A DNA stretch of 64,000 nucleotides from Promethearchaeia archaeon (GCA_049671145.1 JBATUM010000185.1:1828-65827), one strand, 5' to 3'. Counted from the stretch's first letter, positions 101-62,803 are shown. The notes: a model not told the origin generated them from the sequence alone. Translations and numbers: made by a program.

Positions 101-3100
101 ATGTTCGAAAAAAAAGAATCTGATATAAAAAAGAGTGAGAAACAGAGAAAAAAAGACATTGATGACGGATTACATAAATATGGAAATTATTTATATAGTA
201 AAGTGTATGGCGCCCCAGAAACGCTTCTAACTGATCATGAAGGTAAGATTGGGTTTTATAAATCCCAAACCATGTTTTGTCCTAAAACCGAATGTCCATA
301 CCATAGAGTCTCTGATCTGAGTTTAAATATTGATTACAATCTTGAAGAATTTGAATCTGAAATCGATTATCAAGAACTTATCGGACATAAAATCAAGCAA
401 GAAGTACAAAATATTACTCCAATTGAAAAAGAACCAGTTAAAACACTTAGAGGACAGTTTCAAGAATTTCTTAAGACCTATAAAATTTCAAATGTCACTC
501 CTGATGAGTACTTTGGTATTGCTATGTTCTTTAATAAATATTATAGAAAATCTGAATCTCCAGATAGTCAAAAATGGGTACTTAAAAAATTAAAATATAC
601 ATCTGATCTGTGTTCCGTAGAGGAAGTGGAGGATACAAAACAGAAGTCCAAGCCACTACCCCATTCTAATGTAAAGCTAATAGGAAAATATGAACGATAC
701 TTAGAATCTCAGAAACGATCCATAAGAAGATCACGATATAATAAGAAAGTCATGAAAAGACGAACAAAAAACCTTAAAAGCTACAAGCCTATTCAAATCC
801 AAGAACCTTCCTTAAAAAAAGAGATTTATAACAGAAATGTTACTCGCCAGCAACTTCACAATGTAAATAAGAATCGTCCATTTAAAGAGAAGCAGATCCC
901 AGACCCCATCTATGATAGAAAAAGCAAGATATATTATGATAGTTCTCTCACTGAAAATTATTGCCTTAAAAAAGTTTTAGAACAGTCCCATGTTCATGAA
1001 TTAACACATAATTATACAGATGAAAGTTTACTTCGGAAAGAAATTGAATTCTTTTATTTAAAAGATTTTCTGGGCTTCTTCTTACGTAATCCTAATTTGC
1101 AAAAGAGTTTTCATTTTAAAGATAGTGATGAAATAGTCCATTTTGCTAAACTAATTAAGGGTTATTGCTATGACTCATTCATTTCTAATATAGTTGAAAA
1201 ATATCTCAAAGAATCCCCTCTTTATAGGTTAATTTCAAATATTTCTCTACTTTCTTCTCAAATCGAAAAGCAAATTATTCCTGCCTTTGAAGATATCATA
1301 TCAAAGAGCAAAAAAATAAGACAAATTATCAATTATGCTGAATGGACTAACTTATTTACTCTTAGTAGGAATATTGAGCATATTCAGAATCAGTTGATTC
1401 AGCACCAAGTAAAACAAAAGCATCACGCTTTACTTATTGGTTTATTACAGCAAGTAAATGCGTTATGTAAAGACGATCAAGTTTTAACTCATTTAAGAGA
1501 CGTATGTAGGTTTATTAAGGTACAAGTTACCTCGATCACTCCTTATATTTATTCCTCAATCAAACTTAAAAATCGTAAACGAGCCCAACTCCTCCTTACT
1601 CACACCCCTGTATCTGATTTAGTTTCATTTGTTAAACGAATGATTGCATATGATATAATAATGCAACGTTTAGAAATGAAGGAAAGCTTGAGCCTTAACA
1701 ATAAGGACGATAAACCTGTAGAAACAACTTTCTCAAAGATAAAAAATATATTTCGAAAAGAAAAAACTCAAAACAATATGAGAAAGAAGAGACTTATTAG
1801 TAGAATAAAATTACCAAAGTCAAAAAAATTACATATCAAATTAAATATATTTAATAAATTTAGGAAAAAGAGAAGGATTACTAAAAAAATTAGAAAAATT
1901 AGAAAGTTAAAAGAATCTGATTATCGTACCAAACATCCAGATGAATCTTTATATAAAAGAATTAGGCGCCGTTCAAAAGAAAAGTTTGGAAAGGTAAGAA
2001 AGAGGTCAATCCTAAATCTTGCAGGAAAAGGACTTGCTTCCTTTGGAGTAATCCTTCTATGCATATATTTAATTATTTCTTTAGACAATTCATTCTTCCC
2101 ATTTCACATTTTTATGGGTTTTCTTATCTTTCAAGTCCTTATTTATGGAATATTATTATTCTTTTCTATTGATAGGTATGTTTTGTCTAAAAGCCGGTTG
2201 TGGTATCTAATACTAAGCCCATTTATAGGTTTTACCTTATTATGGCTATGTGTAAAGCTTGGATTTTCTTTAGGTGCTACCTTAGTGATTCCAATCTTTA
2301 TGGTTGTTTCCCAACTATTAACTAGAAATCGACCTCATATAAGTGTAGAGGAATTAGTGCGCAGATCAACGAGTAAAATACGACATTCTACCTTACGTCT
2401 CTTTTATCACACCCATAAGTTTGGATTTCTAACTTTTTTACTAACTATAGTACTTATCATTTTCTTGTATTTCTATTTCTTTGTCCCCCATCTCAACTAT
2501 ATTCCGCCAATGCTAGCGACACTTGTCATATTTATATTTACTTTTAAGAGCAAGTCAGCACTAAAACGAGTTATAAGAGAAGTAAGGCGAAAACGTGCTA
2601 AGGTAGAAGAGTCAGAAATAAAAGCAAATAAATGCCTGTTAGTACTTCAAGATTCTAATAAAAGGAAAGCATTAATTGTTTTGGTGTTCCTTGTATTATT
2701 TCCGGTTTCCTTTATCGTAAATTCAGCAAAAACTGTTCATTGTCCTCCGGTTGAATTTGCCTATATTTCTCAAGAAGATCGGTTGTCTTCAAGTTCACTA
2801 GATTTTGAAACATTAGAATACCAACCTGATACTACATACTTGGAAGATATCTCCATTAAAGATATGTTTATTATGAAAAGTGAAATCTCTCCTGAATTTG
2901 CACAATCTGCAGCAATGCGGATTCAGCTAATTCCTGAGGATGTGCCGTATATAGAAGGATATCATATTCGTGATCATTATGATTTTAGATCTGGATATGT
3001 AAATGGACCATTAGAGGATTATGCCCTCATTACCAAGGTAGAACTAAATAGGTTTGATATCCTTCCTGGTCAGTATCAAATGCACGTGTATTATACTGAA

Positions 3101-33100: not shown

Positions 33101-36100
33101 GCCACTAAATTTGACTATCCTATTACTAAAGTTACAATTGAAGGGTTTTCACCTACTTATGGTCCTTATGGTCTGCTTGTAGTTGATGAAGAACCCTTAT
33201 TTGAGGTAGAGCTTGATACATATGACTACAAGTTGATAGGAGGTAATTTGTATTTCCTTCAAAGTATTAATACCATAGCGGCACAGAAGGATCCAGACTT
33301 CAATAATAAAATTTCCACCATCCAAAGTATGGACAGAGAGTTCTATTACAGAGTTAATATATTTTTCAATACCATTGTGCCCTATGACAGTTCCCGTGTG
33401 TATGATGATGAATTTACTCAATCTAGCAGACCAGCTCAGGTGTTATATGAATATGTGGATACTGAAGCCGATGATTTAGGCAAGTTAGCACTAGCTCAAT
33501 TGATTTCCTTGAGTATTGGCAATTATCTTGAAGTATTTACGTTAGCAACAGCAACCGCAGAATATCATACCGAGCAAAGATATACGACTGATATCACCTT
33601 ACAATCTACTCTTATCACTTCACTTGCACTTGCCCCCATGACCATAGCTAATTTGTACGGATCATTCTCGAGCTCAGTTTTGGCTGAGCTTTCCGAGGAG
33701 GCTGGAGAGGAGATTACAAAATTGACAACCCAACAAGCGTTAATATGTTTGGCTAAAGCTTCTGCTGTTGTGTTAGCGAGCATTCCCACTTCAGTTCTTA
33801 AGGAAGTCTATGAAGAATTATATATCGATACGTGGATTGAGCATACTACTGATAGAATTGTTACTGCACTTGGCGGAGATGAGGGAGCTGCATCATGGTG
33901 GTCAACTTTTATCTGTTCTTTTAGAGAGGCATTTCTCGGATGGTTTAGTGATGTAAATATTGGTTCTGGAGCTGATTCCCAAGTTACCACCGAAACTACT
34001 CAAACCACAGGCACTCCTACCTATGCTGATATGGGATTGAATGCCGCGTGGGATTTAATTCAAAACACAGAGCAGGCCCTTCAAAATATTGAAGTTGCTA
34101 TACAACAAGGACGGAAAGTAGCTTCTAAAGGAATTTTAAGCTCTTTAGTCGATACTGATTCTATTCTGGCTCTTCTCTTATCTATACCAGGATTAATAGT
34201 AGGCGGTTTTGGGTTAGGAGCTCTTTCACTGCTAGGTTCTGCTAGTATGGATATGATTCATGCCCAGATCCAGAAGAATGTAGCAAGAAAATGGGTTAGC
34301 GCATATGAAAGTATACAAGAGAATATGCAGCAGAGTTTGGATGGGTTAATAGAACAAGAGATTGCCCGACCGAAGATCAAAACTTTAGATCTTGAAGTTT
34401 TCAACTATCCAACGGTAGGATATACCCCAGAAATTGGGAGGCAATTAACCCAAAACTATCTTACTCCTGCACAAATCATTGATCAAACTAATACACTTAT
34501 AGCAGATACAGAAAAGACATTAGCAGAGATAGAGTCTCGGTATGAAATTCAGAAAGAAAATATTGAACAACAATTAGAAGTTTTAAAAGAAATGGTAAAT
34601 TCAGAGTCCGTTTCCAATGAAAATCCCTTTGAAATTTTTGTAGCAGAAGCTGCTGTGAAAGCTGATCCTGTTTATGAAGTAAATGGCATGAGAATATGGA
34701 TTCAACCGCTTCCTGCTGAGCATTATAACTTAGATCATGATATGACATTGAATGAATTTTTAGCTTTAATAGACATCTTAAATGATCCTTCAAAACAAGC
34801 GGTATTCAATGGTTTTATTCTCCAACATGGGACAGAAATTCTCACCGCACAAGGGATCATTCGATTAGATGGAAATATGCCCCTTTCTCAAGCATTAGAC
34901 CTTATTGGATATGATCGAAATAATTTGGAAGATCAATTTAATAGGTTAGCTCCTTGTATTCAAATAATTGACACAACTACACTCCTACAATTACAAGATG
35001 ATATATCGAATCTATTCAATCCTGATGCAAGAGAAGCAATTTTTTATCGAAATAGTATTTCTGACTATCAACGAAGTTATTTTTATTATAAATTTTTAAA
35101 AGTTTATCAAATACAACAATCTGAAATAAAAAACACATTTAATAAACCGATATATGAAGTAATCTATAGTAGGCTAGTGAATAGCTTACCAACGGATATT
35201 GAATTTACACTAGAGGCGTGGAAGCAAGAAGTTGATGATAAAGCAAAACAAGAAGGAAAAATTACAGATGAATTTAGATATATTGTTGACCTATGCCTTA
35301 AAGAAGTAATTTTACTTAATTTGATCGAACTCTCAGGTGCGAACGAAATTGACATAAATGAAATATTTAACTCATTGGATAACTACTTAGAAAATAATTT
35401 GGATGCCCTTATTGAAAAGTTATCTGATCCCAAAAATTTCGCATTACTCTTAGCTGAAGTCAAAAACAAGATCATTGACAACCTCGCACAAGATGACTTA
35501 TCAGTGTTTTTAGCCCTTACTCACCGATACTTTGATTCCATAAACCCGAATCCAAGTCAACTAAATCTGTTGGATGAGCAATTTCAAAATATCCTAATAT
35601 TAAAAGATTTATCTACTATAGCTGAAGATAATAATGTTCGTAATGAAATTAATTTTCTGTCCGATTTTATCTACCGATTACTCAATATTTACTCTGAAAC
35701 TGCTATTTTAGAGGGTTTAAATGATTTACCTGTACCAGGAGATAAAAGAGAAGGAAATGATTTTATAAATAAATTCTTAAATATGCAGGGTCCTAATAGT
35801 GAAATCCAGTACTCCATAAATCACCTCAGAAATATGTTCACAGCATTAGGATTAAATAATGACCTTTTGAAAGAGATGCTTTTAGATCAAAAATCTTTCT
35901 TTAGGGTTTTACGTCAAAAAATTCAACAAGCTAGCCAAAATCAAGATTTAGATCAAGAAGTTAGAAATATATTCAATAATATTGAAACAAACTTAGGAGA
36001 TTTAGATTTCAATGGAAATGATGGATTCACGAGTGATGAAGAGATGCTTTTAAAGATTTTAGATGAAGAACTTAATAATCTTTTTGGATATGTTGGTTAT

Positions 36101-36973
36101 TCACTTTTACAATTAGGTTTAATATCAATTGACAATAATTGGAATTTAGAATTTAAAGCCCCAAAAGATATAGGAACTCTAATAGATATTATTAGAAATC
36201 TTAATATTCATGCCAATTTTGAAATTAATTTGGATGGTGCGAATAATATAGAGAATGTGGCAAATCTAATACTTTCAATATTATTATCAGGGCACTATAA
36301 AACGTATACAATTGTTGACGAGACAGGAAAAGTAATAAAACAGAAACAAAAATATACTCATCCCGGAAGAGATTTCTTAGGTAATTTATTCGAAAATTAT
36401 CAAGTAGGTATTAAAAATCCTCTTTATCACATCAATATCAATGATATTTTTACAAAACAATTTATTTACACTCGACATTTTGTTAATTTCTTTAGATTGT
36501 CTCAATTATATGATGAAAAATTATTCTTTCAATTACCACCAGGTACTCAATTCACTAAAGCAAAAACCATTGGAATTGTTGAATCTGTGGGTGGTGAACG
36601 AATAATCGATGAAATTAATAATATTCGAGTAAAAGATAATAGACGTGTATTTTGGCTCGAATTAGGAAACCAATTTAGTGGATTTGAACATATTCTGTAT
36701 GACAGGAACATATTCGGTACATTTGAATTGAATAAAGAGAAAAATCCTTATGGGCATATGAGAGACTTTGCAGAGTGGGGTGGTTTTTATACTAGAGAGG
36801 ATATAGCGACATTAATTTTGAATACAATTAAAACACAAGAATACACAAGTAGTATAAATGAAAATGGAATAGAAGAGTTAAGATTCGAAGTAATGACAAA
36901 TTTTGGAATTATTAAGGAATTTGTTATCATAGTTGCGAGTAATGGATATATAATTTCTGCTTATCCGCAATAA
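101..36973 (+). CDS. Giant (12,290 aa) membrane-anchored surface/adhesin-like protein with a C-terminal toxin-like domain
   Basis: A single 36,873-nt reading frame is open in AT-rich DNA, while all other frames carry only short ORFs. Order of parts: soluble N-terminus, Lys/Arg-rich stretch, hydrophobic cluster, long N/S/T/Y/D-rich region with Ig-like, LamG-like and DxDxDG motifs, second hydrophobic cluster. The C-terminal region recurs as orphan copies downstream. Confidence 0.9.
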   Translation: MFEKKESDIKKSEKQRKKDIDDGLHKYGNYLYSKVYGAPETLLTDHEGKIGFYKSQTMFCPKTECPYHRVSDLSLNIDYNLEEFESEIDYQELIGHKIKQEVQNITPIEKEPVKTLRGQFQEFLKTYKISNVTPDEYFGIAMFFNKYYRKSESPDSQKWVLKKLKYTSDLCSVEEVEDTKQKSKPLPHSNVKLIGKYERYLESQKRSIRRSRYNKKVMKRRTKNLKSYKPIQIQEPSLKKEIYNRNVTRQQLHNVNKNRPFKEKQIPDPIYDRKSKIYYDSSLTENYCLKKVLEQSHVHELTHNYTDESLLRKEIEFFYLKDFLGFFLRNPNLQKSFHFKDSDEIVHFAKLIKGYCYDSFISNIVEKYLKESPLYRLISNISLLSSQIEKQIIPAFEDIISKSKKIRQIINYAEWTNLFTLSRNIEHIQNQLIQHQVKQKHHALLIGLLQQVNALCKDDQVLTHLRDVCRFIKVQVTSITPYIYSSIKLKNRKRAQLLLTHTPVSDLVSFVKRMIAYDIIMQRLEMKESLSLNNKDDKPVETTFSKIKNIFRKEKTQNNMRKKRLISRIKLPKSKKLHIKLNIFNKFRKKRRITKKIRKIRKLKESDYRTKHPDESLYKRIRRRSKEKFGKVRKRSILNLAGKGLASFGVILLCIYLIISLDNSFFPFHIFMGFLIFQVLIYGILLFFSIDRYVLSKSRLWYLILSPFIGFTLLWLCVKLGFSLGATLVIPIFMVVSQLLTRNRPHISVEELVRRSTSKIRHSTLRLFYHTHKFGFLTFLLTIVLIIFLYFYFFVPHLNYIPPMLATLVIFIFTFKSKSALKRVIREVRRKRAKVEESEIKANKCLLVLQDSNKRKALIVLVFLVLFPVSFIVNSAKTVHCPPVEFAYISQEDRLSSSSLDFETLEYQPDTTYLEDISIKDMFIMKSEISPEFAQSAAMRIQLIPEDVPYIEGYHIRDHYDFRSGYVNGPLEDYALITKVELNRFDILPGQYQMHVYYTELTGFSFATSTPEEYEITLEKDAMQVLSNERFEDLPVEYYGAVWTVENVVDNCWTIHFDGTLTNSIHEPLANYELDLFIEDHDTWQKVTTVTTDLEGKFSYEYTIYGSIEMNMMIKISHEGNGLYKPLEYIEYAGLEINTELGRFFIDEDGDGKIDWGLSLEDLLNALLGMSYAPPSSLDFLSHFSESSGTNTYDAVHNYQGILKGDTQWTVGKEGYGLYFDGEGTVSEGSETIGTTIYNAYANVSYQYSDTGWNSPQTTSSVDRSGSVNWSNPNNAQSQDDSYTSSNLEISGGSGVSSWHAESDSEQSITSSSYVEKHTLDFTAPAQGDYLIIVSCEVASTSTSYSVGVRVQLDDTTTIMEALTEACDSNRNYEYKCESTAYLAEDLGSGSHSIDIDAKREGGTSYIRYARIIVLRLDDWLSTTGMYAYTSTEGSTTPASNQWVDLETLTFTPDQAGDYLVLGSVEVKDYHTGYSAAVRLDYDNGSEYLPVIQGEESGQSYITYEAKDTTDYHAFVFGGIINITASQKSIKLQSYMAHTGFYREVRRRRIIAIRLDAMSSDTQSTENASNTSTTSQWADKSSLQFTPSSQQDYFIIGGMVIKPDRTWKPSHGELTHTTGTGTGTISLANVDSKDHDNPADCFPLIGIAIKQLNAEQQVFKTRYGYAGSSGTTYGKGSFIIAVPLGGGGGGGSAESDNLRCTNFGFNIPTGATIEGIEVGMDRYATNITENSIRDDSIRLRKTSGPVGTDNATTDWWDTMDDDTYNTYGGSTNLWGTSWTPADINSINFGIDIAAENIGSTNTAYIDHVRVKIYYTKQDSGIIRPDGDVSAQWEASSDGNHYSLINEETLNTSDYIYTSSNTTGSVIDEFTMETLNIQSGTVTEITVKVYGNETSIDSTVNVYCGSWIGAKQLNMESGQTWYTYTWSGLNLSQSDLDGLKIKFESVQPPSEGSTTYDYVDFGDILDSALGTTNNEFVITGWVYPTVLTSNQSDNGIKNCFFSKEGILEIGINESGYLQLYINTSSIEATAIYGFQNAISTNKWIYIAIRYNNGNIDVLIGDTWCTSALGSTAEPWSGGGNLQSGGKFTIGAETTSYSCFTGKIDEVSVFNTSLTNAEIEEHSFQITATVAKEDGQGGWTLITTNGEVIEGYLNFQCAVAGREADTVEYYLSNEVPDMESPDTNDWYFLTSYSYDSSSYNFVYNSWDLPDNDSWYFIIKATDVYNDTVYTYYETYFGIDHFDELINFTYLDKDGRINQNSQIGVIPYEGCEGYISQLNLYVNYSNDIDYLTTVNYSDLYSNYWLFNLDSLSDWISQKGLTPDNYDINFLIEANLSYSVGEAFYLYNYTLETITLDIEPPELELLTSGNYSFDLEDTYDIIEDNVLTMATNSSDAYFDRVILEYKYTTPSTAGWIEYGEYLADNTSLADVSFDIINLRDDNITIRFIGYDDLDNSKILYSSDYWFIKNFNNHEEFVVEGLEATALYGLDDTDKIDLELKILPVDNDITEVIVRTNYEEFKLDNIISEQEHIYFTDDGSSDPDIKLNSVFYNVFGAKFTFIPVKVILYQGTDIVNSKEVVITVISAVFNDTVQMSNLEINVSSTTDNIYMSFVNETNAYNNSHSIPFVVRNQYPVVNVYNSLNELVESIPLYANNDSWGSKVYDTETIEISSNKFNVSLPTPPSGEVCSIDEVLLNGSAYPFSYFISMNTGQVYITLLSGNDLDGIYNSSNPISIIYGVSTSPHPTEQFVGSFDFSNLHQDNYTFIGKFYDISGEVSTYSISQPTIIDFDGPEIYQQFMQETAVNPETGTISFVIEDFSGVSHYYFNTTIEGYWDIAGDIYTFYFNDTSISEGTTHIILSCNDTLGYESQQTFVLFLDKTTPSFDGVESSTDVWNGLFEIYANISDNSGYTVDIELLHISSNTISSSFEHTYIEIAPDQWQILLDSTRLQSGYYNISIIATDAAENIQTYVIDNVYFDNTISVIEELKEEVFIDSESMYNNTIHDELYFSDEKYITFTAFDEMFDNFNWSSIDQAVYEQLGVKNVTFYYTSQLAWYPLQIYGTLDYETFVYKITGYDDPLNTNVQNIKSIQKLRIANITVDKFTVLLDGTSISIRIDEQYRYLLSSEYSDQIEAQFYEFVDDNVLLAFDQVSEKWKLKSTGENYFNISQYLTLNEGDEFLFWFEIEDGLGNLIHSHKYHGVYDNSMTKDGSDSFFKWSLGTNSTGAGIVLFGSDTYADSTIQLNSSSIENTIFDESDVQRIYIYGSSDQSTWEFIGRAYYSGEESIWNYYWDGDIMEQLPPDHYNLRVYLFDRAGNYLSETHVIRTFDYTQIALITDLIFGEIFDYNSTANSNEQELKGIIENYLSGSSTSLWDVIAEYYNPNTKEWIPLATDPATIVANGNSANYTITWDINQDTAFMDTMYNLTYNYLPLQIASPTQQSLWGSWGTFGIASEWQPIIISEVSSNLDISVYKFNSTTGWELDTSLSSEATISSIEGQVFKLFDINKDGVYEIIRVSSSKIDVIYLDGSSDWTIKEDVTGLSGYEYSAFDIEYDGTSSNSVMVITQKDSSQLLSLWYYRFDSEFNLTKVESVECPINFEPYAIKIENYFSGSDRKAILVGGLISNSYISQVFEYDFNLNLKYVIADEIIGKVSVIEYDQINGIDSIILGVERLAIGKMDAVITLKRTTGTEEWVEFELSGFDDLKFQIIDLITIQENNMKHLIISSKTGLFQTRIITLQDKTSITSPICFISETYAKGELSPTNYPVVTPNNLPIYNIQKASYKTSGSNQWQTLNPEKYRYSRNEIRLDLQSIWSSLTYIKIAYSFESFVAEARSSVDPSFQSYSGTSDTQSVSASGMFFNDFSLPFAWLNPTSNYYAPNAHWNTLPNSLTYQYTPVISGLGNKVVYPTIKSDWAENWGSEYLNMPELENSLIYYGDGYDTGQLTQYLNSKDPDLADTMYLNNYVDGMYISNPYISENYNFSDMYYSDIHNINNQNGLYNYYDGSQKVIARNSLEDCQVYGSSNSKVFEEETFPTKGEDHYLHSVTYIYGSPSSGSIANTKRDDSNYFEMKSQFFHDPYGDDYQEFNVDLNIDGGYGGDDYYVSVRVTAPISVRLIINGVYAQGTSIDVNLDYIGDITQIKLTAGRPASQGQFKVKLYYFKVAKSLSADSPLYQNPSAQEAEYVLANRSQYLATDTSDFAVFGLGFTYKLPVIDRDGIEGIHIMFDAAISAVTADKHYPLSIQLWNYEQNRWESINVSKLDSSDTYDDNYLDKDFWAWDPGASSYKDDKFRSSWLTQDDTSINTICFGDCVPHSIDASGYIDFDSSVENGGNLFNTSKTGYSRNNEYISHYRVLFNNTAYANKLQANSLVIDPNNFFTSTSTFPAYTDSSLFYSANFYTDFLNDLHEFKVRIVTEKESGQGTNINAYLCIGDCNTYVHTDSSYLNYDEFESNALDGRHISDDLEFTDQGMKLYGYSGFNLKGVPEVQKFRDAFNSYQWQFEGTDDSTIYFTKDILQGTVVRSLHPSTNYDTNNFTSYRRQDAVIDYPFYKSALKGNYKAGSLLSIETNNGIYLSYTSEKDTYHEAEVKIYNYFDQMSGNAAKTYTIYYDIESEGTVDFMSLYNEDETIAQWDGGELSGMDRVEDPSTYNLYVYARSNSNFTLNIDQLVVETTPEEWETFMELDTLEEYLTFGSNDKFNLTVSRDSYLYIPTPSPIAKLYSTYLFDEDTITWNNKPADRGLITQNTLPQSSTSEIFDLGTIHPTKQYIKVDISATGGFNFWSPIVNYQFAKSYQEGGMLYMQTNTTEFLTLKSPVYAKNTTMTLNDHIVVECKTTSSNQINLALLSGDVVVKNYTLIPQNNTDFTSQFIALDTNSTIKFDQIIISGQLDEAEYFIANSITVFEGESIVDVKLSAYDFTIKKNQWPNVLPEGAKDQELSDPIYGQEKDGLYYNLSSGTFIDYQQLIVEFEFPLSAEEITNAHKVQVRLNGYAQGASLDDAIFKYFNFDNGNEEEISYVKNNGEYRFSIPKSDFATLKYDNDNYYVNFKMILTNTSMGPDDEFTLHIDSIDAIVFKDWSVDHDLYRVSYVFKRLGDSQTGGNVTLAVNDDILLTIDDNDLYTSGYENVVNFYYDTQTQEWSAFINEDPEDKTNATDTELSLKLRVESHYNNVNHGILLKSVDHHFYKKIENSLNFEEYKSILYSYENRLGNAESVIIGNSSDLITPENLFTQVCADIDVIYSFHDEMVPDNILSYSLNPTLESTYQDTLAAFNYTETGFIPKSSTSSEIEVYNDEKIAVENTTSHTQNGLPYRCSGFFDDQYLSNNTLRFTIKNSIQTPLFGRSNETLYANLKLTDVDLEFNVIISPTYTGFPLENTNVEGNDETVYNPSVLCNYSAYSQSRFRNSAIDDVQIPLISPIELDFSSINLDDFGTANLELALGLDIFRNNILYNRSWSLRFRLLYYNYSSDSWVDFQGMLRVKNNGVDKAVWNPDSTDNFIDYLQDPNANNFIPIYNENNIVIKNPITINNINTDTIQGGIMKLMFISYILPGNFSGDGNNNYFFYERADPDVPIEISQSLTIQECIMIGESKQIMYPEPSLKATLGLDENFRANLSLIENLGDIIAIRGLYEDGDGILYQYPIDYYWTTSGNELAFNSPMKYLFTNVSIEYVPQASLSYNATDGLWYLPNLITINGKNYTQPFFVSNLYVNDTLYGTYVHPSVDVGYVLGFDDKNVYANFSTPIHPDSNVYGAIYFGKVDSKYLYQIKLKDELLYKYNVLNDEDDLIGGIIKLGLNVGFTNVIYSELSQVSCSDYLLDITLYSLSENNDEELEREKIGTIHIDLDKNWVGYHYYDLEINLDQCEFVNESKGIKRLAEALTRGSAADLYIEVESVITNCFVNGPLFKGLYAQDIISAEFEIESDTSEIQYNGAEVDNAYIEIPQKSIMLTKIGTNIYKFGNLKYNFGFVVDELRAEGSVVLAENTHYEFDAGSRTITLIGDDYKGYSGLLSADITYYAFKWNAGQVSTLDPITLTFTQDYVQNITKFMEFIIQYDTIPGIDIEKIDFISGRIVLSDEEKSSALLNIYLYNFVEDKWELTPFVPYDDYSGSLIYSYVADRNFVVFEDYFNQTGSDTFEIKAIFTVEQESGECFASKIGFGITSIGAKLYYNTPSVQHKLNPAVEFDIDITDYITDPNIYLEELTVDLMYEAEIEFDAAFIYSQYALLEENFNFYIRNNYLEFDEFELNHNSITLSREEVYCFLYHDIVNEKYYLRAKLEYDWNCILEINLGSSSKLEIISELTLLKYDLTVDYTYYETTRISANEITVPHEIVPIYAPNYIETQSGINNLADDEELDLGIFGGFLRNVDTRQRLMIRQKLLYNFTESQQDWTQIILDHEYTDSTLRFVVPYGYMEIPETYIINSTYFGFIADHEVVHVELYYKDGQTDTKVANMTQNEEEPTLFKYTWNDVKGDTGASTNDTIEVMFNVTDILGNNAKYRYNLTADFDPPTPTIELGDGVQDFESANTATPLTEIDFICGEQSSCTEEYRIVDLVSGFVSSWNEINHSEISILHDLGDLSANFSIEYRVIDIAGNENITSIYNGNYQYIQFSKEKSITLNDDTIDLNSYTNREISFADGNEFNHSSQLDVFINGFRYGTAYLDSGYYKLSFGNENSEKTLIGYSESLISNNIFSNINPLDHVSWEVREDEYFAVVKHVLLNDNIEIYNYLSFNTTAQFELDHLYDRGFSLHDFMYLNRVYYYNETDGNVYTLISELDYSITENGFVEFPENSTIYDLYQNSDVQDGVVYFNYCYSPYQEQLLLTNADGFFVNVSIPDVYYHHTTIQKLVVSFNDIDGNTFTKIYYDLDLRKYFMEDVKAQYENYMFKLGKMMSIPLYIDFSDIALSNPGKNFALHLLESISFRITDSEKWPGSYIQNFSDYTVMNLPYQRFAITDLKLYNLISDTIDADEQGYVTANITFTAPEYYGFYAEEEFKIKRLDIVFTDVKAYVYHEEILDGSTVAIEYSDQIILNYRWNNTFSPVIMDDVVNLPITLENASNGDILGFSVANWITKLDMDSESGYYTRYYYSQFLAPSLLGEFNISFGSLGTPIFNMTFISPPIFILNITQETLSATEPIYLADDMYELKYGETLLLDGCIADNDEYLIEDEVYEYKYEEAVDGKTTHALKILSPFGDDEFIDKEEFSIYFINDKLNVKCLYSTLNGLHFVNTSYLDGKREPTISYVDNSFILNINWYKKSDHFIEYDTLLLISYKVLKGKPISPTSFSSLDSYGNDMQQNLIEIPFAKYDILSRSWITEDDFEKQLFVDKQLLYKDVESTQATIQGPQYDEGSLIQTGIIDIHAVYVNKSYSDKFCHVAPTEYTWSINANGELVVEDLNYSSGDVFKVIYYAVEPVALSHSVANPQYQISHITVTNDTGYSYEFVEGNDYKVSEDGYTLYFLDLYNEFLKNNVFTIYDYFNITYHAPLSRKVDLSQNVLLMLQDTEGNDIPIDNIPIDSLGFFQYKKQLKVDSDLSLPLGGGKQLVHLTLKYLPLSVYNKSADQSITIDYEDQNVGKFYPYVESNAWAKPFTVITIPHRVKLKMVEDPTQDMVITQEFYEEREYKFNYNPVEALENGEEYTKIMIDALAKEEYQFTFRLSDFDDKPIENSVVWLHIGLMPKSKTGFLNERAVIDEYNIHPYFESLGTEEFTSRGPGIGTNKMFGRPLTYELNYYNTNYSAYGPYVWLYGITNAHGEVIFDVSFDNDFIEDFTDIFGLMEGFSSVEDIVLYIRAFSTDFDWDEFTIDSPDQYLCSKDGDVYNGITEEHYSYICSINNTISYNLALQDSTYVEGLIHLYKNHIALGVHDHVSYDLPDAKVRSRYDPLKLHLDVTEADPIPTTEMYTLQSLTKLHASSELEPSGNPILSDDYTYYAYVNFITPSGSVAESTYRAILDGGNNGYITFDNQTIKDILIDLGPGISTIQIQVAESEYYQASPVVMVPLEIKPANWTKFGEKNLEIDLIDPFINAYGNAFDNDNYIPFESNYPHLIGTLWIDPDYLGTGDNRSAKERSALDCMELNLIFNPDNTDPIPLRKGVMLSPGNQDGIMLFDIGFGPEDSFLMDISGVLNFSFSIEDTKYGIYEDNRTFEAYLLDLRLEENPSCSTPTTLWSVYENGFDTSGVDHLSVKVIDPSIISTETGSLSLGGFENGVNYGFEIEFEYDPEVEEYAIDAQSELLSLFCLESITSLEIINETGQEVTGWSQYYPSPSNLREQSAIKFGSSTPKNYTKFIIIYKFEFEFGTNNYVNMIFGPSNNMNKTSILFYFEDGFLPPSEDSKSFMFIRYNQTIAGTGASSYKLDYSIYGATSGDEDKFIIYNEQELEEELNKEVSLSINGVDHHAYIEFNETIGSGTSFNVIYGVSSQYMLGYGFQKEDKSYSDSVRLMYNNNSAASIIDSSSNTVGTVVLDDPSLYISLDNSPNETVLEFYNVPMLYAPEIIMTFKLDPMNTKLINENYQNEENTLKIKFYYVAQGGYGSYYTDALEIPLNYTKIQSDLINDIYTLQYSKDLQGIYEAFGVGSLDIYISISQTGNNSNYIPYIILEQFDYLCDEHLVEMYARMPLTKEGEMDVEAIINTPHYFQVFSQPFIDCEWGESPFDLMNGSEITVALEDLIHSSLVSLDVEDGNYGFTYLGTMETLPINSENYYMIPNLGVFTDAYSVDEVTYNEGFLNLFYGAGAQVSGEYEYYNRHYMVHESSPVDDYYSVIGSGVPTSWEDMFNITNQFLTTQEIDVSGTVLYHQLFDLTTDTIDMGDLEDVLGNITNAYFALQLPDEVSIAHIRAIGTPYEYDLSVQGFPVGDYVDGTYCKVKTSGTTQAFDTRIIDLDLLNASTDFDLKFATNGSKYIVFYKPTSFVQNLAENDMIMVDFWAYYTFAEGFDYEIEEDPINPYVSIIDWDYNIESLQSYTMHPDFANGSSFSIEFSALDWNSINNQYIYDGEDEFTFHPSISTNITVPYYGDATEDFSLLNIVPEEQWNDTEIFYYVYVYIWDGENESSTELYELREAFYNGYITQDENCSFYFTLNFTAMEDYIKIMEGNNYEIISDTYAFVQVSFISDQLKYPLSHTPFNYDYVGTEHTSYHIKLTISNNDPIYSYQTSEFSKYVLKIEDNYIHFQNRNYSEEGYIANKTNIKIEYKFKLQPGLLEQKHVLMTIYPWSNTFDSIFDGLTAADGSMMSYREKYRKLSGGSIISPFEYSLSINETYSLLLSYRLNQREYFEEHFEIDHRTGENEFYYMQEGLDLYVSELVEDGIPAVYVYYHDEEGRLNFLDRESYLVDTNIHKLTILSDSNPIITYIKDFYVSFLVTPHDFISTGYKFTYNPSIKNITETLTLTSWNVLNGESFDVYPNFDAYYYLNEDTLTPTFCESFATQIGAVLEEEERLVLNFTDALDSQMLTDIRDGKYLSLYINTAFSNYESLDHITIELNDTSGIMSEFTQVYTRSDLEYWDFKIKVRLPSTANTLQNMTIIPEFRSDDEYSPNNSLGVPRFDMIEWDSQALVEDINGQYMLHNLEYPLYTDESSLDLAYLFTDKLEYLGLPTGIAFNWSIEKDALGKDISILHIPSIYVDPITSVNCTFEDGDTIFLRYNSPVEKEIGIGIESMYFHKEPYGYDSLSTLAECMLINASSSESFVEFIAPYSYNFSLSLTPFDTEYMGSYKNIEIEFNVSSLAQFADGDGYVDFSDLVFSVPNPAYELTIQEVALIEHSLAPSEYVDEFYSRIWQYTELEEFTSSADPESDQYHLLLEEGPIFYYDADEGKWLEHLKIYDENYNYYSACVQGDADAKNYQLLYDSTSGNFTWNNNFDKTQEYWGMEIELPSIIDANTSFYFEYCTNSSWVHPITLYYTHIDFDSVDIIYNYEYLLTPRFEEWYGEIVENSNYDYELVQYYGETFTVYTDESVYSHIFNVEYSFTKDFVNMSLYKIVGMYANYTELMIEDDDVNFDITFDVEDKNVTITDLNSGDGLLNVFDSITIFLNYSFGPISMLTEVYLSDEFNQTYLTDMEETFYDYVSCSFSYHANSPNYLFAEPYQYIISGSSSFSPINFSRNEDLTTGYHLESYDTTTLYTKFEIFEDPFNVIYEADIDSNGEVDYKQEVDVDKDGKVDITRYGVEDPEYAGQIIWYRVIQEFESTERTIELFENPEKRTEWFDLDESHVGTLLDAEYREGVLEMFGIDSLEGFPLWNPTYWNMWCQRSTKQSSSKEQVVTTKFYSIRSDENRDGYAETQVNYLKTIATTYTNLTTIEETYVAGQTTCITSHKLDYSKMSAIFSIVTVEHLESGEFPDKFKKFTGIIEQLKESFTKYVRTTCVYYKDTQISEQIKYIEFEEGEIKETRVYSDNFVDEFSAFDCESTIQTLTITINDTEQAQEVVSPAAFIAEISTLNWTTPTWGIDDVPLKFDSLTTISSEGDIVAENYYERTIIISVPSIYSLYHEYLSDERAGMLPVATSNTLFSVKGVFITPPDGQVFYSSDKLDYLSGRLVEDGDGSGGFSVKAKTEGHYLYYDSDGNGYYETIFILYPDHVGDGIYTVMSVGFNYDGRQVFDPYEVLDYEILQGNVKSETEQSAKVVGAVCHRTLLAQIDEVYPNDFDGVIAKDHIFEIIKLVRRGDINKYWPELYYEVYHDQYARSWELYSQGFQDDLWDQTRNQLIAGIVGGSLGIFNVALGGLAYAFIYWGYSMMESEEKKQLAENHMRSATFYSIETERKDPIKVSQKHPADGPEDMWENINGHPSAFYTEVSGGEPGNLYTGQAVIIPPRSFSTWSESMYHVNPHDYPDLAIGYLNLDYFFLSSELSAYNDRPHYSFYFDNLGNMDDLSEVFSALSELGARPTDPSSFFAKALLYHQYRHNTLAYLEDHVEVISDKEFNAIRPICINGRPRYEFINANDELNQLTLPRSPLYQPIVVDQERYDALVEEFGVPIGVISVEVASDLLEEDYTLGISSSDMNLAERESYNAKIPLTATKFDYPITKVTIEGFSPTYGPYGLLVVDEEPLFEVELDTYDYKLIGGNLYFLQSINTIAAQKDPDFNNKISTIQSMDREFYYRVNIFFNTIVPYDSSRVYDDEFTQSSRPAQVLYEYVDTEADDLGKLALAQLISLSIGNYLEVFTLATATAEYHTEQRYTTDITLQSTLITSLALAPMTIANLYGSFSSSVLAELSEEAGEEITKLTTQQALICLAKASAVVLASIPTSVLKEVYEELYIDTWIEHTTDRIVTALGGDEGAASWWSTFICSFREAFLGWFSDVNIGSGADSQVTTETTQTTGTPTYADMGLNAAWDLIQNTEQALQNIEVAIQQGRKVASKGILSSLVDTDSILALLLSIPGLIVGGFGLGALSLLGSASMDMIHAQIQKNVARKWVSAYESIQENMQQSLDGLIEQEIARPKIKTLDLEVFNYPTVGYTPEIGRQLTQNYLTPAQIIDQTNTLIADTEKTLAEIESRYEIQKENIEQQLEVLKEMVNSESVSNENPFEIFVAEAAVKADPVYEVNGMRIWIQPLPAEHYNLDHDMTLNEFLALIDILNDPSKQAVFNGFILQHGTEILTAQGIIRLDGNMPLSQALDLIGYDRNNLEDQFNRLAPCIQIIDTTTLLQLQDDISNLFNPDAREAIFYRNSISDYQRSYFYYKFLKVYQIQQSEIKNTFNKPIYEVIYSRLVNSLPTDIEFTLEAWKQEVDDKAKQEGKITDEFRYIVDLCLKEVILLNLIELSGANEIDINEIFNSLDNYLENNLDALIEKLSDPKNFALLLAEVKNKIIDNLAQDDLSVFLALTHRYFDSINPNPSQLNLLDEQFQNILILKDLSTIAEDNNVRNEINFLSDFIYRLLNIYSETAILEGLNDLPVPGDKREGNDFINKFLNMQGPNSEIQYSINHLRNMFTALGLNNDLLKEMLLDQKSFFRVLRQKIQQASQNQDLDQEVRNIFNNIETNLGDLDFNGNDGFTSDEEMLLKILDEELNNLFGYVGYSLLQLGLISIDNNWNLEFKAPKDIGTLIDIIRNLNIHANFEINLDGANNIENVANLILSILLSGHYKTYTIVDETGKVIKQKQKYTHPGRDFLGNLFENYQVGIKNPLYHININDIFTKQFIYTRHFVNFFRLSQLYDEKLFFQLPPGTQFTKAKTIGIVESVGGERIIDEINNIRVKDNRRVFWLELGNQFSGFEHILYDRNIFGTFELNKEKNPYGHMRDFAEWGGFYTREDIATLILNTIKTQEYTSSINENGIEELRFEVMTNFGIIKEFVIIVASNGYIISAYPQ
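2030..2725 (+). other. Cluster of about 6-7 predicted transmembrane helices (N-terminal anchor of the giant protein)
   Basis: Hydrophobic runs include LASFGVILLCIYLIISL, FHIFMGFLIFQVLIYGILLFFSI, LWYLILSPFIGFTLLWLCV, LGATLVIPIFMVVSQLL, FGFLTFLLTIVLIIFLYFYFFV, MLATLVIFIFTF and ALIVLVFLVLFPVSFIV. A K/R-rich stretch (about 1780-2010) precedes them. Confidence 0.7.
4051..5150 (+). repeat. Three tandem protein repeats of about 120-130 aa inside the giant ORF
   Basis: The units start HTLDFTAPAQGDYLIIVSCEV, ETLTFTPDQAGDYLVLGSVEV and SSLQFTPSSQQDYFIIGGMVI. They end RIIVLRLDDW, RIIAIRLDAM and SFIIAVPLGGGGGGG. Confidence 0.7.
5969..6465 (+). other. LamG / concanavalin-A-like lectin domain (main part)
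   Basis: The sequence ...NEFVITGWVYP...WIYIAIRYNNGNIDVLIGD...GGKFTIGAE...FTGKIDEVSVFNTSLTNAEIEEH matches the Laminin_G_3-type pattern (hydrophobic core strands, then F-x-G-x-I-D-E-V-x-h-h-N-x-x-L). Confidence 0.6.
10480..11300 (+). other. Possible FG-GAP/VCBS-like beta-propeller region
   Basis: Blades of about 50-60 aa recur, with motifs such as FDINKDGVYEIIRV, FDIEYDGTSSNSVMVIT, KAILVGG and DSIILGV. Judged by eye only. Confidence 0.3.
14160..14420 (+). other. Possible DNRLRE/CBM-like module
   Basis: DKFNLTVSRDSYLYI...LFDEDTITWNNKPA resembles the TWNNxP signature of DNRLRE-type carbohydrate-binding modules. Confidence 0.3.
30470..30539 (+). other. Two adjacent DxDxDG-type calcium-binding loops
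   Basis: DIDSNGEVD and DVDKDGKVD lie 8 aa apart. Similar loops occur at about 3540 (DEDGDGKID), 10600 (DINKDGVYE) and 31735 (DSDGNGYYE). Confidence 0.5.
32520..34290 (+). other. Conserved pre-toxin module shared with the orphan ORF at 41867
   Basis: The two copies are collinear. Giant gene: LNLDYFFLSSELSAYNDRPHYS, FNAIRPICINGRPRYEF, LYQPIVVDQERY, YNAKIPLTATKFDYPITKV. Orphan: LNLDYFLMTSELPAYNFRPGYS, FDTIRPVCKDGRPQYEF, LYQPIVLDQYRF, YKAKIPLFQHEFDYPVQNV. Both continue into matching hydrophobic segments. Confidence 0.8.
36482..36970 (+). other. C-terminal cassette CT1 (putative toxin domain plus junction)
   Basis: From VNFFR onward it is collinear with orphan CT2. CT1 reads VNFFRLSQ...AKTIG...RVFWLELGNQFSGFEHILYD...ASNGYIISAYPQ. 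CT2 reads VNFFRSSH...AKTIG...RVTWLELGNQFGGMEHILYD...SSNGYIINAHPW. Confidence 0.6.
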
Positions 36974-37033: not shown

Positions 37034-37504
37034 ATGGAAATAATAGTAAAAAAGGTAAGAACAGGAGCAGAATATGAAGGCAAAATTGCAAATTTTTGGA
37101 TTTTAGGGCAATTAAAAGATTCCTCATGTATATGGATCTTTGACAGTAAGGCATATGATTTAAGGAAACACATAAACAACAATGTTGAATGTTTAATTTT
37201 AGCTTTTTTAGTGAATCTTACTCAAAAAGATTATAAGCAAGATAACAAAGAATCAATAACTAATATAATTAGTGGAAATTTTATTAAATCTGCTCTAATA
37301 ACATCAGACTGGAAGTTGCCATGGAATTATAAAGAAAAGCACTTTGCGGCATTAAACACAAATAATGGTTTGGTTTTATTGGATTGGGCAGATCTTGAGA
37401 CAATACCTATTCGAGAAAACATCGAAATTAAATTTCAAGAGCTAGATGAATTAAAATTATATGTACAACGATTCGATTTGGTAGCTTGGCATCCAATTGA
37501 ATAA
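37034..37504 (+). CDS. Putative immunity protein 1 (AWHPIE family, 156 aa)
   Basis: It starts 60 nt after the giant ORF stop and is preceded by a TAGGAGCG Shine-Dalgarno-like sequence. No TM segment or signal peptide is visible. It is paralogous to 38503-38985 and to the remnant at 41297-41536, and its C-terminus reads VQRFDLVAWHPIE. Confidence 0.6.
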   Translation: MEIIVKKVRTGAEYEGKIANFWILGQLKDSSCIWIFDSKAYDLRKHINNNVECLILAFLVNLTQKDYKQDNKESITNIISGNFIKSALITSDWKLPWNYKEKHFAALNTNNGLVLLDWADLETIPIRENIEIKFQELDELKLYVQRFDLVAWHPIE

Positions 37505-37590: not shown

Positions 37591-37941
37591 GTGGATCTAA
37601 TGGTAAGATTAAATCAAGAATTTGATGAGCCAATAAGTGAAAGTATGTCAGGATTTTTAGTAGATATAATTGACAAAATAGATGAAATTACTGAACAAAA
37701 CCCTGATCAAATAATAAATGATTATCTGGCAAAATATTATGAAAGAAGGAAGCCAGTAGAACATTCTTTTAGTGATGATTTAATTGAAATTGTCAAAAAT
37801 GATATTATACTCAATATAATAGAAGTGAATACAGAAAAATTTGAAAATGTTAGTCAACCTGTAATGAATAAATTAATTGTGTTTTTCAAAGATTTTTTTA
37901 TAGATGAATTCCATAAATACAAAAACATTGAAATAAGTTAA
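37591..37941 (+). CDS. Hypothetical acidic protein; possibly a decayed pre-toxin linker of the orphan cassette
   Basis: GTG start, 116 aa. Its end overlaps, in another frame, the point where CT2 homology begins (37937). KNDIILNIIEVNTEKF weakly resembles KNPLYHININDIFTKQF in the giant protein. Confidence 0.35.
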   Translation: MDLMVRLNQEFDEPISESMSGFLVDIIDKIDEITEQNPDQIINDYLAKYYERRKPVEHSFSDDLIEIVKNDIILNIIEVNTEKFENVSQPVMNKLIVFFKDFFIDEFHKYKNIEIS

Positions 37942-38494
37942 TTTCTTTAGATCATCTCATTCATGGAATTTAGAATTAATTTATGAATTAAGAGGAAATG
38001 GTGTAACTTTTGATATTGCAAAAACAATAGGTCTAGCAAGAGAAGGTCGAGAAATCATAGAATTACCTGATGGCTCCTTTGCAATTAGTGGAAGGGAAAG
38101 TAGGGTTACATGGCTAGAATTAGGAAATCAATTTGGTGGTATGGAACATATTCTGTATGATACATTTATATTTGGCTCTTACGCTCCACACCCTACGCAT
38201 TTAGGCCATCTTGGGGATTTTGCAAAGTATGGTTATGATACAAAAGAAGAAATTGCTGAATTAATATTAAAAACAATCCATGAAAATGATTATTATATGT
38301 ATCTTGGTAGACATACTTATAGAATTGAGACTAAATCAGGTGAAACTATATATATAGGAATTATTATATCATCAAATGGATATATAATTAATGCCCATCC
38401 TTGGGATCGGGATCAGGATGATATTGATAATTTAAATAAAATCTTTCAGGAGATTGATGATTATTTCAATTTTAAATTATTTAATAATTGGTGA
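37937..38494 (+). pseudogene. Orphan CT2 cassette (start-less copy of the giant protein's C-terminal about 185 aa)
   Basis: The frame opens right after a stop at 37934-37936 and translates to VNFFRSSHSWNLELIYELRGNGVTFDIAKTIGLAREGREIIELPDGSFAISGRESRVTWLELGNQFGGMEHILYD..., collinear with giant residues VNFFRLSQ...EHILYD. The first ATG is internal, at 38141. Confidence 0.75.
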
Positions 38495-38502
38495 ATATTT
38501 TT

Positions 38503-38985: not shown

Positions 38986-39024
38986 TTTTGACTCTATTTT
39001 TTATTTAAAATTCCTCTACTTTTT

Positions 39025-54717: not shown

Positions 54718-54825
54718 AATCAAGTTTTTTATTTAAATATCCCTAAAATATTAACTTTTAAAACAAAATTCGAGGTGGTTTAGATCGAACCAGAATTTTG
54801 GCATGGAGTAGTAAAAATTACTCAA

Positions 54826-56772: not shown

Positions 56773-56803
56773 TTATAGGAGGGAGGGAATCTGAATTAGT
56801 GAA

Positions 56804-62787: not shown

Positions 62788-62803
62788 TAAAATAAAAAAT
62801 TTT

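Follow-up and report, generated by a model that had tools for sequence, protein, structure and literature searches.

Polymorphic toxin systems, in the sense of Zhang, de Souza, Anantharaman, Iyer & Aravind 2012 (Biol Direct 7:18; for a general reference see Ruhe, Low & Hayes 2020), are recognized by a C-terminal domain (CT) from a known toxin family, an immunity gene that travels with the toxin type, a conserved body with variable C-terminal domains, orphan cassettes downstream of the main gene, and the occurrence of the same CT on unrelated delivery domains elsewhere. In archaea such systems have been predicted and are without experimental characterization (PMC8416519). The VARTIG modules of Thermococcales, which have been likened to polymorphic toxins, consist of a large surface protein with a hypervariable C-terminus made by recombination, followed by variable downstream genes (PMC8416519). 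Archaeal proteins of more than 10,000 amino acids (aa) are, according to West-Roberts et al. 2023 (bioRxiv 10.1101/2023.11.21.568195), most numerous in Asgard archaea, and Wu et al. 2022 (PMC8813620) describe the Otus and Ephialtes genes of aloposons together with 'many unrelated giant genes' in that group. Here we analyze a giant gene in a 64,000-nucleotide stretch of DNA from a Promethearchaeia archaeon (GCA_049671145.1 JBATUM010000185.1:1828-65827), hereafter the window. The gene extends from 101 to 36973 on the plus strand, begins with ATG and has 12,290 codons with a single terminal stop; colinear homologues are found in other assemblies. Together with its downstream genes it probably forms an effector locus of the polymorphic toxin type, one with a new scaffold. 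Homologous proteins and loci from other assemblies are cited by our own P and L numbers.

The toxin domain occupies the C-terminal end of the giant protein, aa ~12,131–12,290 (36491..36970, plus strand), and belongs to a known toxin family, the BECR-fold RNases of the CdiA-CT(BWH57) type. An alignment of ten C-terminal domains, A3, was used as a profile against PDB sequences and gave exactly one match, 7m5f_C, 'Toxin CdiA', with E 2.9e-16. The motifs LE-GN---GL-HI, H--(D/Q)F, and SNGY(I/V)V are common to A3 and 7m5f_C. The AlphaFold2 (AF2) model of the CT has a mean pLDDT of 76, with the core at 83–97, and a Foldseek search of the PDB with that model returned a sole match at E ≤ 0.001, again 7m5f_C (E 1.1e-4, probability 1.00, target-normalized TM-score 0.73). 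A second toxin of contact-dependent inhibition (CDI) in the same listing, 6cp9, is far from significant (E ~0.9). Structure 7M5F is the CdiA-CT/CdiI complex of Serratia marcescens BWH57; the available part of the report describes the toxin as a BECR-fold (Barnase/EndoU/Colicin/RelE) nuclease and gives H47, E51, H52, and R89 as the active site proposed by the depositors, who deduce nuclease function from the fold, no activity or substrate being reported in that passage (PMC8616854). His12197 and His12219 of the giant protein are invariant in A3 and align with H47 and H52, and E51 and R89 are not strictly conserved. The two histidines are thus candidate catalytic residues. Because the A3 profile match, the Foldseek match, and the invariant histidine pair all point to 7m5f_C, we consider that the giant protein ends in a recognizable polymorphic-toxin RNase domain, with RNase activity as the predicted one.

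An earlier reading of the window, made from the sequence alone (hereafter the sequence-only reading), had described an uncharacterized giant archaeal gene with a defined architecture, which proved correct, and had offered no function. The present assignment goes beyond it: the C-terminal domain, which the earlier reading rightly reported to recur downstream, is likely a toxin domain accompanied by immunity genes, and this would give the giant protein a function. The recurrence and the immunity genes are analyzed next.

The putative cognate immunity gene, I1 (37034..37504, plus strand), encodes 156 aa and begins 61 nt after the toxin stop; its assignment derives from the pairing of its family with the toxin family at other loci (see below). 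I1 is without detected similarity to CdiI(BWH57), and PDB sequence searches with I1 and with the tail of the spare cassette described below found nothing significant. The last 162 aa of the giant protein recur at 37937..38401 with 40.6% identity and E 3e-22. The orphan toxin cassette that holds this copy (37937..38494, plus strand) has 185 codons plus a stop and no start codon before codon 69; its frame opens exactly at a VNFFR motif, and all toxin motifs are intact. It is followed by I2 (38488..38985, plus strand; likely start ATG at 38503), a putative immunity gene and paralogue of I1 at 28% identity. A 97%-identical copy of the I2 protein occurs in another genomic context in L008 (SDBV01009948.1), where positions 9731..10525 correspond to window 38214..39008, that is, the 3′ half of the orphan toxin plus I2, over 795 bp at 98.2% identity with unrelated flanks. 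It seems that the orphan-toxin/I2 cassette moves or recombines as one piece, a mode of spread known for orphan immunity genes. Between I1 and the orphan toxin frame there is also a 116-aa open reading frame (ORF) with a GTG start (37591..37941, plus strand), which ends 4 nt inside the orphan frame; it has no similarity to the giant's tail and may derive from a tail body that is out of frame, or be a small unrelated gene.

Orphan cassettes downstream of the main gene thus include the CT copy with I2 and, further on, a 1,263-aa ORF followed by a leucine-rich repeat (LRR) gene. The 1,263-aa spare cassette (41867..45658, plus strand) combines the pre-tail module of the giant protein with a different tail and a divergent BECR-type CT. 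Its N-terminal 500 aa match the giant's pre-tail, aa 10,805–11,383, at 29% identity (E 2e-52). Its aa 787–888 resemble S26 signal peptidase I (TIGR02228, E 6e-10, sub-threshold). Its CT, aa ~1,100–1,263, is a divergent member of the giant's RNase profile and displays G-I-I-H-I...G-H-W-A-D-F. The tail matches those of P0007 and P0002. The LRR gene (45729..46568, plus strand) encodes 279 aa (Pfam LRR_4, E 2.7e-38), and its product may serve the spare cassette as an immunity or accessory protein. At loci L001, L027, and L028, too, LRR genes come after tails: the deaminase-type tails of P0015 and P0016 and, in L001, an S26-like tail fragment. In the interval between I2 and the spare cassette (39359..41094, plus strand) are a 91-aa and a 490-aa ORF with no library matches; the 490-aa protein is a singleton cluster in a collection of 15 billion proteins.

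The body of the giant protein is conserved among homologues and the C-terminal domain is variable. By BLASTP, colinearity with the relatives extends to ~aa 11,400 and homology ends at ~aa 11,300–11,600, and past that point the tails are mosaic, for which reason recombination of cassettes is proposed. In an exhaustive HMMER search with tail aa 11,385–12,290, 39 relatives and no more were found among 1.84 billion representative proteins, and the modules they share are nested. A helical tail body, aa ~11,485–12,130 (34553..36490, plus strand; query positions 101–770), is common to P0015–P0022, and the last ~130–160 aa are common to a different set of short proteins and to P0053. The switch point is marked by a junction motif, VNFFRL at aa 12,128–12,133 (36482..36499, plus strand), after which the C-terminal domains of the relatives diverge; in the relatives the motif reads [VI]-x-F-[FY]-R. 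P0015 and P0016 have the giant's tail body and end instead in a Toxin-deaminase-like domain, in which HxE...CxxC can be seen (PF14424, sub-threshold E 6e-6 and 0.17). PD-(D/E)xK-like domains terminate P0003 and P0004 (sub-threshold E 0.0012 and 0.025), and the same motif is seen by eye in P0005 and P0010. An additional observation comes from L001, a contig of a Promethearchaeota metagenome-assembled genome (MAG), where the ORF at 6643..6960, which follows a stand-alone toxin copy, begins I1-like (MEIIIKSVGIGAKHEG...) and past ~40 residues turns into the end of a P0015-type tail body including an NFYRM junction motif. From its sequence, we read this ORF as a visible recombination scar between cassettes.

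The CT and the immunity family are not confined to the giant locus. A scan of metagenome contigs for CT relatives yielded 25 loci with GC contents of 0.28–0.73, and a profile search of GTDB representative genome contigs with the CT yielded one, L001. In all 25 metagenomic loci the CT lies 0–30 aa from the end of its open frame, and the complete CT-bearing ORFs among those fetched encode ~280–1,320 aa, as against 12,290 aa for the giant. The immunity gene travels with the toxin type as a gene pair, its neutralizing role being putative: an ORF of the I1/I2 family is directly downstream of the CT in 12 of the 25 loci (GC 0.28–0.70), with a gap of −3 to +20 nt in nine of the 12 and of ~195–330 nt in L016, L017, and L021. 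The loci without an I1/I2 member have a second small family, of ~108 aa, at that position. In the low-GC locus L029 the CT is followed by an I1-like gene (E 8e-15 by single-sequence phmmer, with no iterated profile), and L030, likewise of low GC, has the layout of the giant locus, namely a CT end, an I1-like gene (E 3e-28, phmmer), and an orphan CT.

In these loci and in P0053 the CT is also found on unrelated delivery domains: WXG100 in L022 (29.8 bits, cutoff 27.3), a WXG100-like N-terminus in P0053, PKD plus TSP3 in L023, and an RHS-core-like motif, recognized by eye, in L018. The contigs with WXG100, PKD/TSP3, and RHS-like carriers are of higher GC than the giant locus. With these carriers, the locus and its relatives display each of the genomic hallmarks of polymorphic toxin systems listed at the outset.

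The giant open frame itself is real. The earlier description of a real, uninterrupted ORF of 12,290 codons is borne out by the single terminal stop and by the stop counts of the other frames over the same span, which are 796 and 1,615 in the other two plus frames and 756–987 in the three minus frames. Since the five other frames hold 756–1,615 stops in DNA of ~34% GC, the giant open frame is not a chance one. GC at third codon positions (GC3) is even along the gene (0.25–0.31), and self-BLASTP and self-BLASTN find no internal repeats in protein or DNA. About 20 homologous proteins from independent assemblies are colinear with the giant at 31–59% identity and jointly cover aa 429–11,611 (BLASTP). 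Their sources are the LCGC14 metagenome of Loki's Castle sediment and MAGs that bear the labels Loki-, Hel-, Thor-, Odin-, and Hod-archaeota. Because nearly all of these homologues fill their contigs, the family is giant wherever it is seen. A word-indexed homologue search with aa 1–2,100, a low-complexity and K/R-rich segment, gave no match, a misleading outcome due to limited sensitivity; P0090–P0094, from the following search, align to aa 429–2,100 at 31–55% identity (BLASTP). A chimeric or collapsed assembly is unlikely, given the lack of internal repeats, the uniform GC3, and the ~20 colinear homologues from independent assemblies. The archaeal origin assumed in the earlier reading is upheld as well: neighboring ORFs are exact matches to 'Promethearchaeia archaeon' MAG proteins (WBH31_09075-09130), and the source organism is an Asgard archaeon of the Loki lineage (Promethearchaeia, Lokiarchaeia-type).

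Within the gene there is a sole antisense ORF of at least 150 aa (19405..19866, minus strand; 153 aa, GTG start), probably a chance frame. No exact inverted repeat of at least 8 nt was found in the 100 nt that the window shows upstream of the start codon.

The sequence-only reading had proposed that the protein begins with a soluble N-terminus of ~640 aa, followed by a K/R-rich stretch and about seven hydrophobic helices, and composition and hydropathy agree. The N-terminal region, aa 1–635 (101..2005, plus strand), is K/R-rich and predicted to be cytoplasmic; it has 135 K+R and 75 D+E, with an extreme K/R run at ~aa 560–635, and is conserved in P0092 and P0094 from ~aa 429. Seven transmembrane (TM) helices are predicted by hydropathy at aa 636–880 (2006..2740, plus strand). 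Alternate loops between them are strongly basic, as the positive-inside rule predicts for an N-in/C-out protein. Hydropathy and this rule suggest that the last TM helix is a signal-anchor that would export everything downstream of it. Clusters of 5–7 TM helices are also found in P0090–P0094, after N-terminal regions of ~190 aa (contig-truncated P0092) to ~740 aa, so the TM anchor is a feature of the family.

The predicted ectodomain, aa 881–10,688 (2741..32164, plus strand), is acidic and non-repetitive, with 1,502 D+E and 548 K+R and with 35–43% N/S/T/Y/D. The earlier reading had spoken here of ~9,800 aa of N/S/T/Y/D-rich modules dense in N-x-S/T sequons. The composition and the sequon density, 167 sequons where 109.5 are expected, stand up; the word 'modules' goes too far, since the self-BLAST searches detect no repeats and one domain only is recognized. 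That domain is a Laminin_G_3 (LamG)/ConA-like lectin domain at aa 1954–2117 (5960..6451, plus strand), with Pfam E 5.5e-13 and a score of 49.8 bits (cutoff 27.6). Beyond it, scans with Pfam, NCBIfam, and PADLOC find almost nothing in the giant, Laminin_G_3 being the only Pfam domain over 12,290 aa. A PDB sequence search with the N-terminal 5,000 aa found nothing significant. Ig-like Pfam matches at E ≤ 0.1 are lacking, the sole entry of Ig/PKD type being K319L-like_PKD at E 0.15.

A repetitive giant adhesin, of the halomucin-like kind or with Ig/cadherin arrays, was also considered as a match for this region and was set aside on the self-BLASTP and self-BLASTN results and the lack of an Ig-like Pfam match at E ≤ 0.1.

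One site of variation lies in the middle of the ectodomain. At aa ~6,527–6,552 (19679..19756, plus strand, from BLASTP coordinates of homologues) the relatives carry insertions of ~300 aa in P0011, ~600 in P0003, ~1,140 in P0010, and ~2,270 in P0014. Just past this insertion point, at aa 6,647–6,676 and thus within 30 residues of each other, begin P0001, P0002, P0005, and P0007, which are from independent assemblies. This suggests a hypervariable, assembly-breaking region in mid-ectodomain. CdiA has a variable receptor-binding region, and by analogy the hot spot at aa ~6,530–6,550 may confer specificity. The number of domain copies in the ectodomain also differs within the family, because a segment of ~125–160 aa that is single-copy in the giant (aa ~1,692–1,855; window 5174..5665) is present in 3–4 copies in P0092 and P0094.

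The second hydrophobic cluster of the sequence-only reading is confirmed by hydropathy and has two parts, aa 10,689–10,717 and aa 11,213–11,384. The first of these (32165..32251, plus strand) is conserved in homologues and may be a helical hairpin, a re-entrant element, or a single TM helix; AF2 gives two helices with a turn, at pLDDT 56–71. The second lies in the pre-tail module, aa 10,718–11,400 (32252..34300, plus strand), which is shared with the 1,263-aa ORF and defined by an alignment, A1, with 31 invariant columns. Its AF2 model, with a mean pLDDT of 59.6, has an alpha/beta core and long hydrophobic helices. A PDB sequence search with the C-terminal 1,657 aa of the giant found nothing significant, and a profile search of GTDB representative genome contigs with the pre-tail alignment found no match in that set, to which the source genome does not belong.

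The distribution of N-x-S/T sequons divides the protein into three parts. In the N-terminal region sequons are near expectation, both in the giant (5 seen, 3.9 expected) and in the pre-TM regions of the family (20 against 20.9). In the ectodomain they are enriched; the excess in the giant noted above is also found when its ectodomain is pooled with those of nine homologues (746 against 542) and in six further homologues (281 against 221). Past aa 10,689, that is, in the C-terminal ~1,600 aa, they are nearly absent: the giant has none where 14.1 are expected, and the giant and homologues pooled have 12 where 130 are expected. The reversed motif [ST]-x-N, used as a control, is at expectation in both the ectodomain (557 against 542) and the C-terminal module (118 against 130), and the other proteins of the window have sequon counts near expectation. 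A cytoplasmic protein would gain nothing from avoiding sequons, and the purge therefore suggests that the C-terminal module lies outside the producer. The C-terminal ~1,600 aa would then meet the archaeal oligosaccharyltransferase outside the cell and be selected to stay unglycosylated, as may be expected of a module that is later threaded through a membrane. If so, aa 10,689–10,717 would be a hairpin or a target-membrane insertion element and not a stop-transfer helix. Sequon purging may thus offer a simple new criterion for the parts of archaeal surface proteins that cross a membrane again.

These observations can be assembled into a specific delivery model, which we advance tentatively. Homology, gene pairing, cassette layout, and sequon statistics are its starting points; export, contact dependence, translocation, and RNase activity are the steps it would add. 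The K/R-rich N-terminus would reside in the cytoplasm and the seven TM helices would form the anchor, the last of them acting as a signal-anchor for the export of ~11,400 aa. The ~9,800-aa ectodomain, acidic, heavily N-glycosylated, non-repetitive, and bearing the LamG domain, would be a long surface stalk or adhesin whose hypervariable mid-region could carry target specificity. On contact, the hairpin, the pre-tail, and the tail body would embed themselves in the other cell's membrane and take the toxin through it. The last 160 aa, the BECR-fold RNase, would then arrest the recipient by RNA cleavage, and I1, of 156 aa, would neutralize the toxin in the producer and its kin. The spares would be the orphan CT/I2 pair and the 1,263-aa cassette together with the LRR gene; homologous recombination at VNFFR or in the pre-tail would replace the expressed C-terminus.

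A broader proposal is that Asgard archaea have their own contact-dependent toxin-delivery machine, unrelated to bacterial secretion systems, which combines a self-anchored, Sec-exported, glycosylated, non-repetitive stalk of ~10,000 aa with a glycan-free translocation module and an RNase, deaminase, or nuclease that recombination can swap, and which serves kin discrimination or antagonism in sediment communities. We regard this as a real possibility, somewhat short of probable. If it is true, the neutral/enriched/purged sequon pattern would be a general signature for delivered modules in archaeal surface proteins.

The proposal that the locus encodes a polymorphic toxin-type effector must be weighed against several points. 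Toxicity, immunity, export, and contact dependence are properties that we infer from sequence. The segment at aa 10,689–10,717 is modeled by AF2 with low confidence, and as a plain stop-transfer helix it could keep the toxin in the producer's cytoplasm. Two segments were submitted to AF2 and Foldseek, and the fold comparison succeeded for the CT, with 7m5f_C, and failed for the pre-tail, the model of which has no PDB match at E ≤ 0.001; no known translocation domain is recognized in it. A peptidase that might release the toxin was not found in the giant itself, the sole match being the sub-threshold S26-like stretch in the spare cassette. The deaminase and PD-(D/E)xK calls on homologue tails are below Pfam gathering thresholds. 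The Poisson P of 2e-40 for the sequon depletion is inflated, as related proteins were counted as independent. Finally, the majority of homologues are truncated by their contigs, no second full-length copy was seen, and the assembly support for the giant ORF is indirect, coming from sequence features and homologues and not from reads.

In light of these points, the most serious competitor, though an improbable one, is a giant adhesin or sensor whose C-terminal 1,600 aa remain inside the producer. On this view aa 10,689–10,717 would span the membrane as a genuine TM helix, and the RNase would act in cis, for example in abortive infection or stress, on a trigger from the cell surface, I1 serving as antitoxin. 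This account would explain the conservation of that segment, which has a TM-like score in all homologues, and for the lack of a signal peptide or TM segment in I1, I2, and the 1,263-aa cassette. The genetic surroundings fit as well, as toxin-antitoxin and defense-like genes surround the locus and the CT-I1 pair of L029 lies in an island rich in toxin-antitoxin genes. The sequons speak against it: the predicted cytoplasmic N-terminal regions are neutral (20 against 20.9), whereas the C-terminal module is depleted ten-fold (12 against 130), for which a cytoplasmic location gives no reason. Moreover, the CT family is found elsewhere on export or delivery carriers (CdiA, WXG100, PKD/TSP3, the RHS-like motif), and C-terminal swapping with orphan cassettes is a signature of exported polymorphic toxins.

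Less credible still is a purely structural glycoprotein of the envelope or of protrusions, for matrix, adhesion, or partner attachment, with a degenerate or repurposed CT and decaying copies downstream. About 80% of the protein is indeed an acidic, sequon-rich ectodomain with a lectin-like domain, and the orphan copy has no start codon; yet the main CT and the orphan both retain the two candidate histidines and the motifs W-L-E-x-G-N, G-x-E-H-I, and S-N-G-Y-I intact, each toxin copy is followed by an intact ORF of the immunity family, and other toxin types occupy the same position in homologues. The least probable account, to which we give very little credence, is an assembly artefact, either an in-frame chimera of genes or strains or a collapsed repeat. 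The source is a metagenome-assembled genome, and many homologous contigs break near aa 6,530–6,680, a sign that assembly may be difficult there. Against such an artefact are the uniform GC3 and the absence of repeats in DNA and protein, and also the independent homologues that bridge aa 429–11,611 in the same order: P0011 and P0089 span aa 2,097–9,106, P0003, P0010, and P0014 cross the aa 6,530 region, and LamG is intact across aa 2,097, where the P0011 match starts. The polymorphic toxin-type effector locus is thus the reading that we retain.

The remainder of the window, downstream of the LRR gene, includes several other genes. Two ORFs of 196 aa and 163 aa (46726..47316 and 47313..47804, plus strand), which overlap by 4 nt, resemble a toxin-antitoxin pair. 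An antitoxin domain of the SocA/Panacea, DarG-C-terminal-like type is recognized in the 196-aa ORF (Pfam E 0.0025, NCBIfam DarG 6e-7, PADLOC PDC-M19A 4e-11), the product of which clusters at 90% identity with LCGC14 and Lokiarchaeota MAG proteins, among others, in a group of 40 members; the 163-aa ORF has no library matches. Three large co-directional genes follow at 50893..61603 (plus strand). They encode a 1,274-aa protein with 4 TM helices, a 648-aa HerA/FtsK-like ATPase (DUF87 E 5e-5, PADLOC HerA 6e-11, mad8 2e-6, and a weak TraD match), and a 1,599-aa protein with no library matches, the DNA of which displays a strong purine skew at 56–60 kb (GC skew up to 0.29, AT skew 0.23). The three could form a DNA-translocation, conjugation-like, or defense module. 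On the minus strand, at 62056..63406, are genes for a CDP-alcohol phosphatidyltransferase (PF01066, E 7e-14) and an archaeal-type SAM-dependent RNA methyltransferase (PF04013, E 5e-14). These are housekeeping-type genes, and their presence suggests that the locus is chromosomal and not a small mobile element.

Asgard archaea are the closest prokaryotic relatives of eukaryotes. They live in tight syntrophic consortia and form long protrusions, and a contact weapon or recognition device on their surface would bear on partner choice and policing. Since partner choice is central to models of eukaryogenesis, such a device would matter to those models. At a more practical level, the CT and I1 would be a toxin/immunity pair small enough to express and assay.

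How, then, does the locus compare with known systems? The nearest is CdiA of the CDI (type Vb) systems, as in S. marcescens BWH57. Both have a very large surface protein (predicted in the case of the giant) with a variable C-terminal toxin after a short motif, an immunity gene directly downstream, and then orphan CT/immunity pairs in which the junction sequence is retained; the toxin domains are homologous by sequence and by fold (7M5F). The carriers differ. Pfam finds neither a TPS domain nor FHA repeats in the 12,290 aa of the giant, and its non-repetitive body has no homology to CdiA. The anchor of the giant would be its own 7-TM N-terminus, and an outer membrane is lacking in archaea. No CdiB gene is found among the window ORFs of at least 150 aa that were scanned or among the small ORFs at 37.5–39.7 kb, with 100 nt visible upstream of the giant gene. 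The motifs VENN, NEALV, DAMV, ELYN, and QLYN are absent from the giant; LYVN occurs twice (aa 2277 and 5700), far from the CT, and the junction is VNFFR instead.

The likeness extends to other polymorphic toxins, of the Rhs/YD, LXG/WXG100 type VII, and MafB kinds, which share the plan of a carrier with a swappable CT, an immunity gene, and orphan cassettes. The giant's CT is found elsewhere on WXG100 and RHS-like carriers, and nuclease and deaminase domains alternate at one position. In contrast, the carrier is new, as it has no detected YD/RHS, LXG, or DUF4157 peptidase domain, nor any other that is known from trafficking or pre-toxin regions. Specifically, the giant has no PxxxxDPxGL motif of the Rhs core and no Pfam match to YD repeats, and its N-terminus, which is followed by the seven TM helices, has no Pfam match to a WXG100 or LXG domain. 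The swappable unit also differs in being nested, with pre-tail, tail body, and CT each exchangeable.

Among archaeal loci, the VARTIG modules resemble the giant locus in their large surface protein, their hypervariable C-terminal part made by recombination, and their variable downstream genes. In VARTIG the part that varies is an Ig domain, with no recognized toxin, whereas the giant family ends in a recognizable RNase, deaminase, or nuclease, together with a conserved immunity partner. A search of the accessible literature on polymorphic toxins in Asgard archaea or Lokiarchaea found nothing specific. Makarova et al. in 2019 reportedly predicted examples of archaeal polymorphic toxins, and members of the present family may be listed there.

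With more than 10,000 codons, the gene is of the kind counted by Wu et al. 2022 and West-Roberts et al. 2023. The aloposon genes, as described in PMC8813620, come in tandem pairs encoding 3,000–6,000 aa, beside tRNA sites and downstream of a MinD/ParA gene. On its layout we rejected an interpretation of the giant locus as an aloposon or mobile element, because the 64 kb contain only one giant gene and lack a tRNA, with no such ATPase gene in the 100 nt visible upstream. In their available parts, PMC8813620 and bioRxiv 10.1101/2023.11.21.568195 assign no function of the toxin-effector kind to Asgard giant genes, which are counted there and not explained; the locus described here would give such a gene, whose product is among the largest of archaeal proteins, a concrete and testable function. 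To summarize the comparison, what is new is a giant archaeal delivery scaffold with no known homologue, and what is known is the logic of polymorphic toxins and a warhead of the CdiA-CT family.

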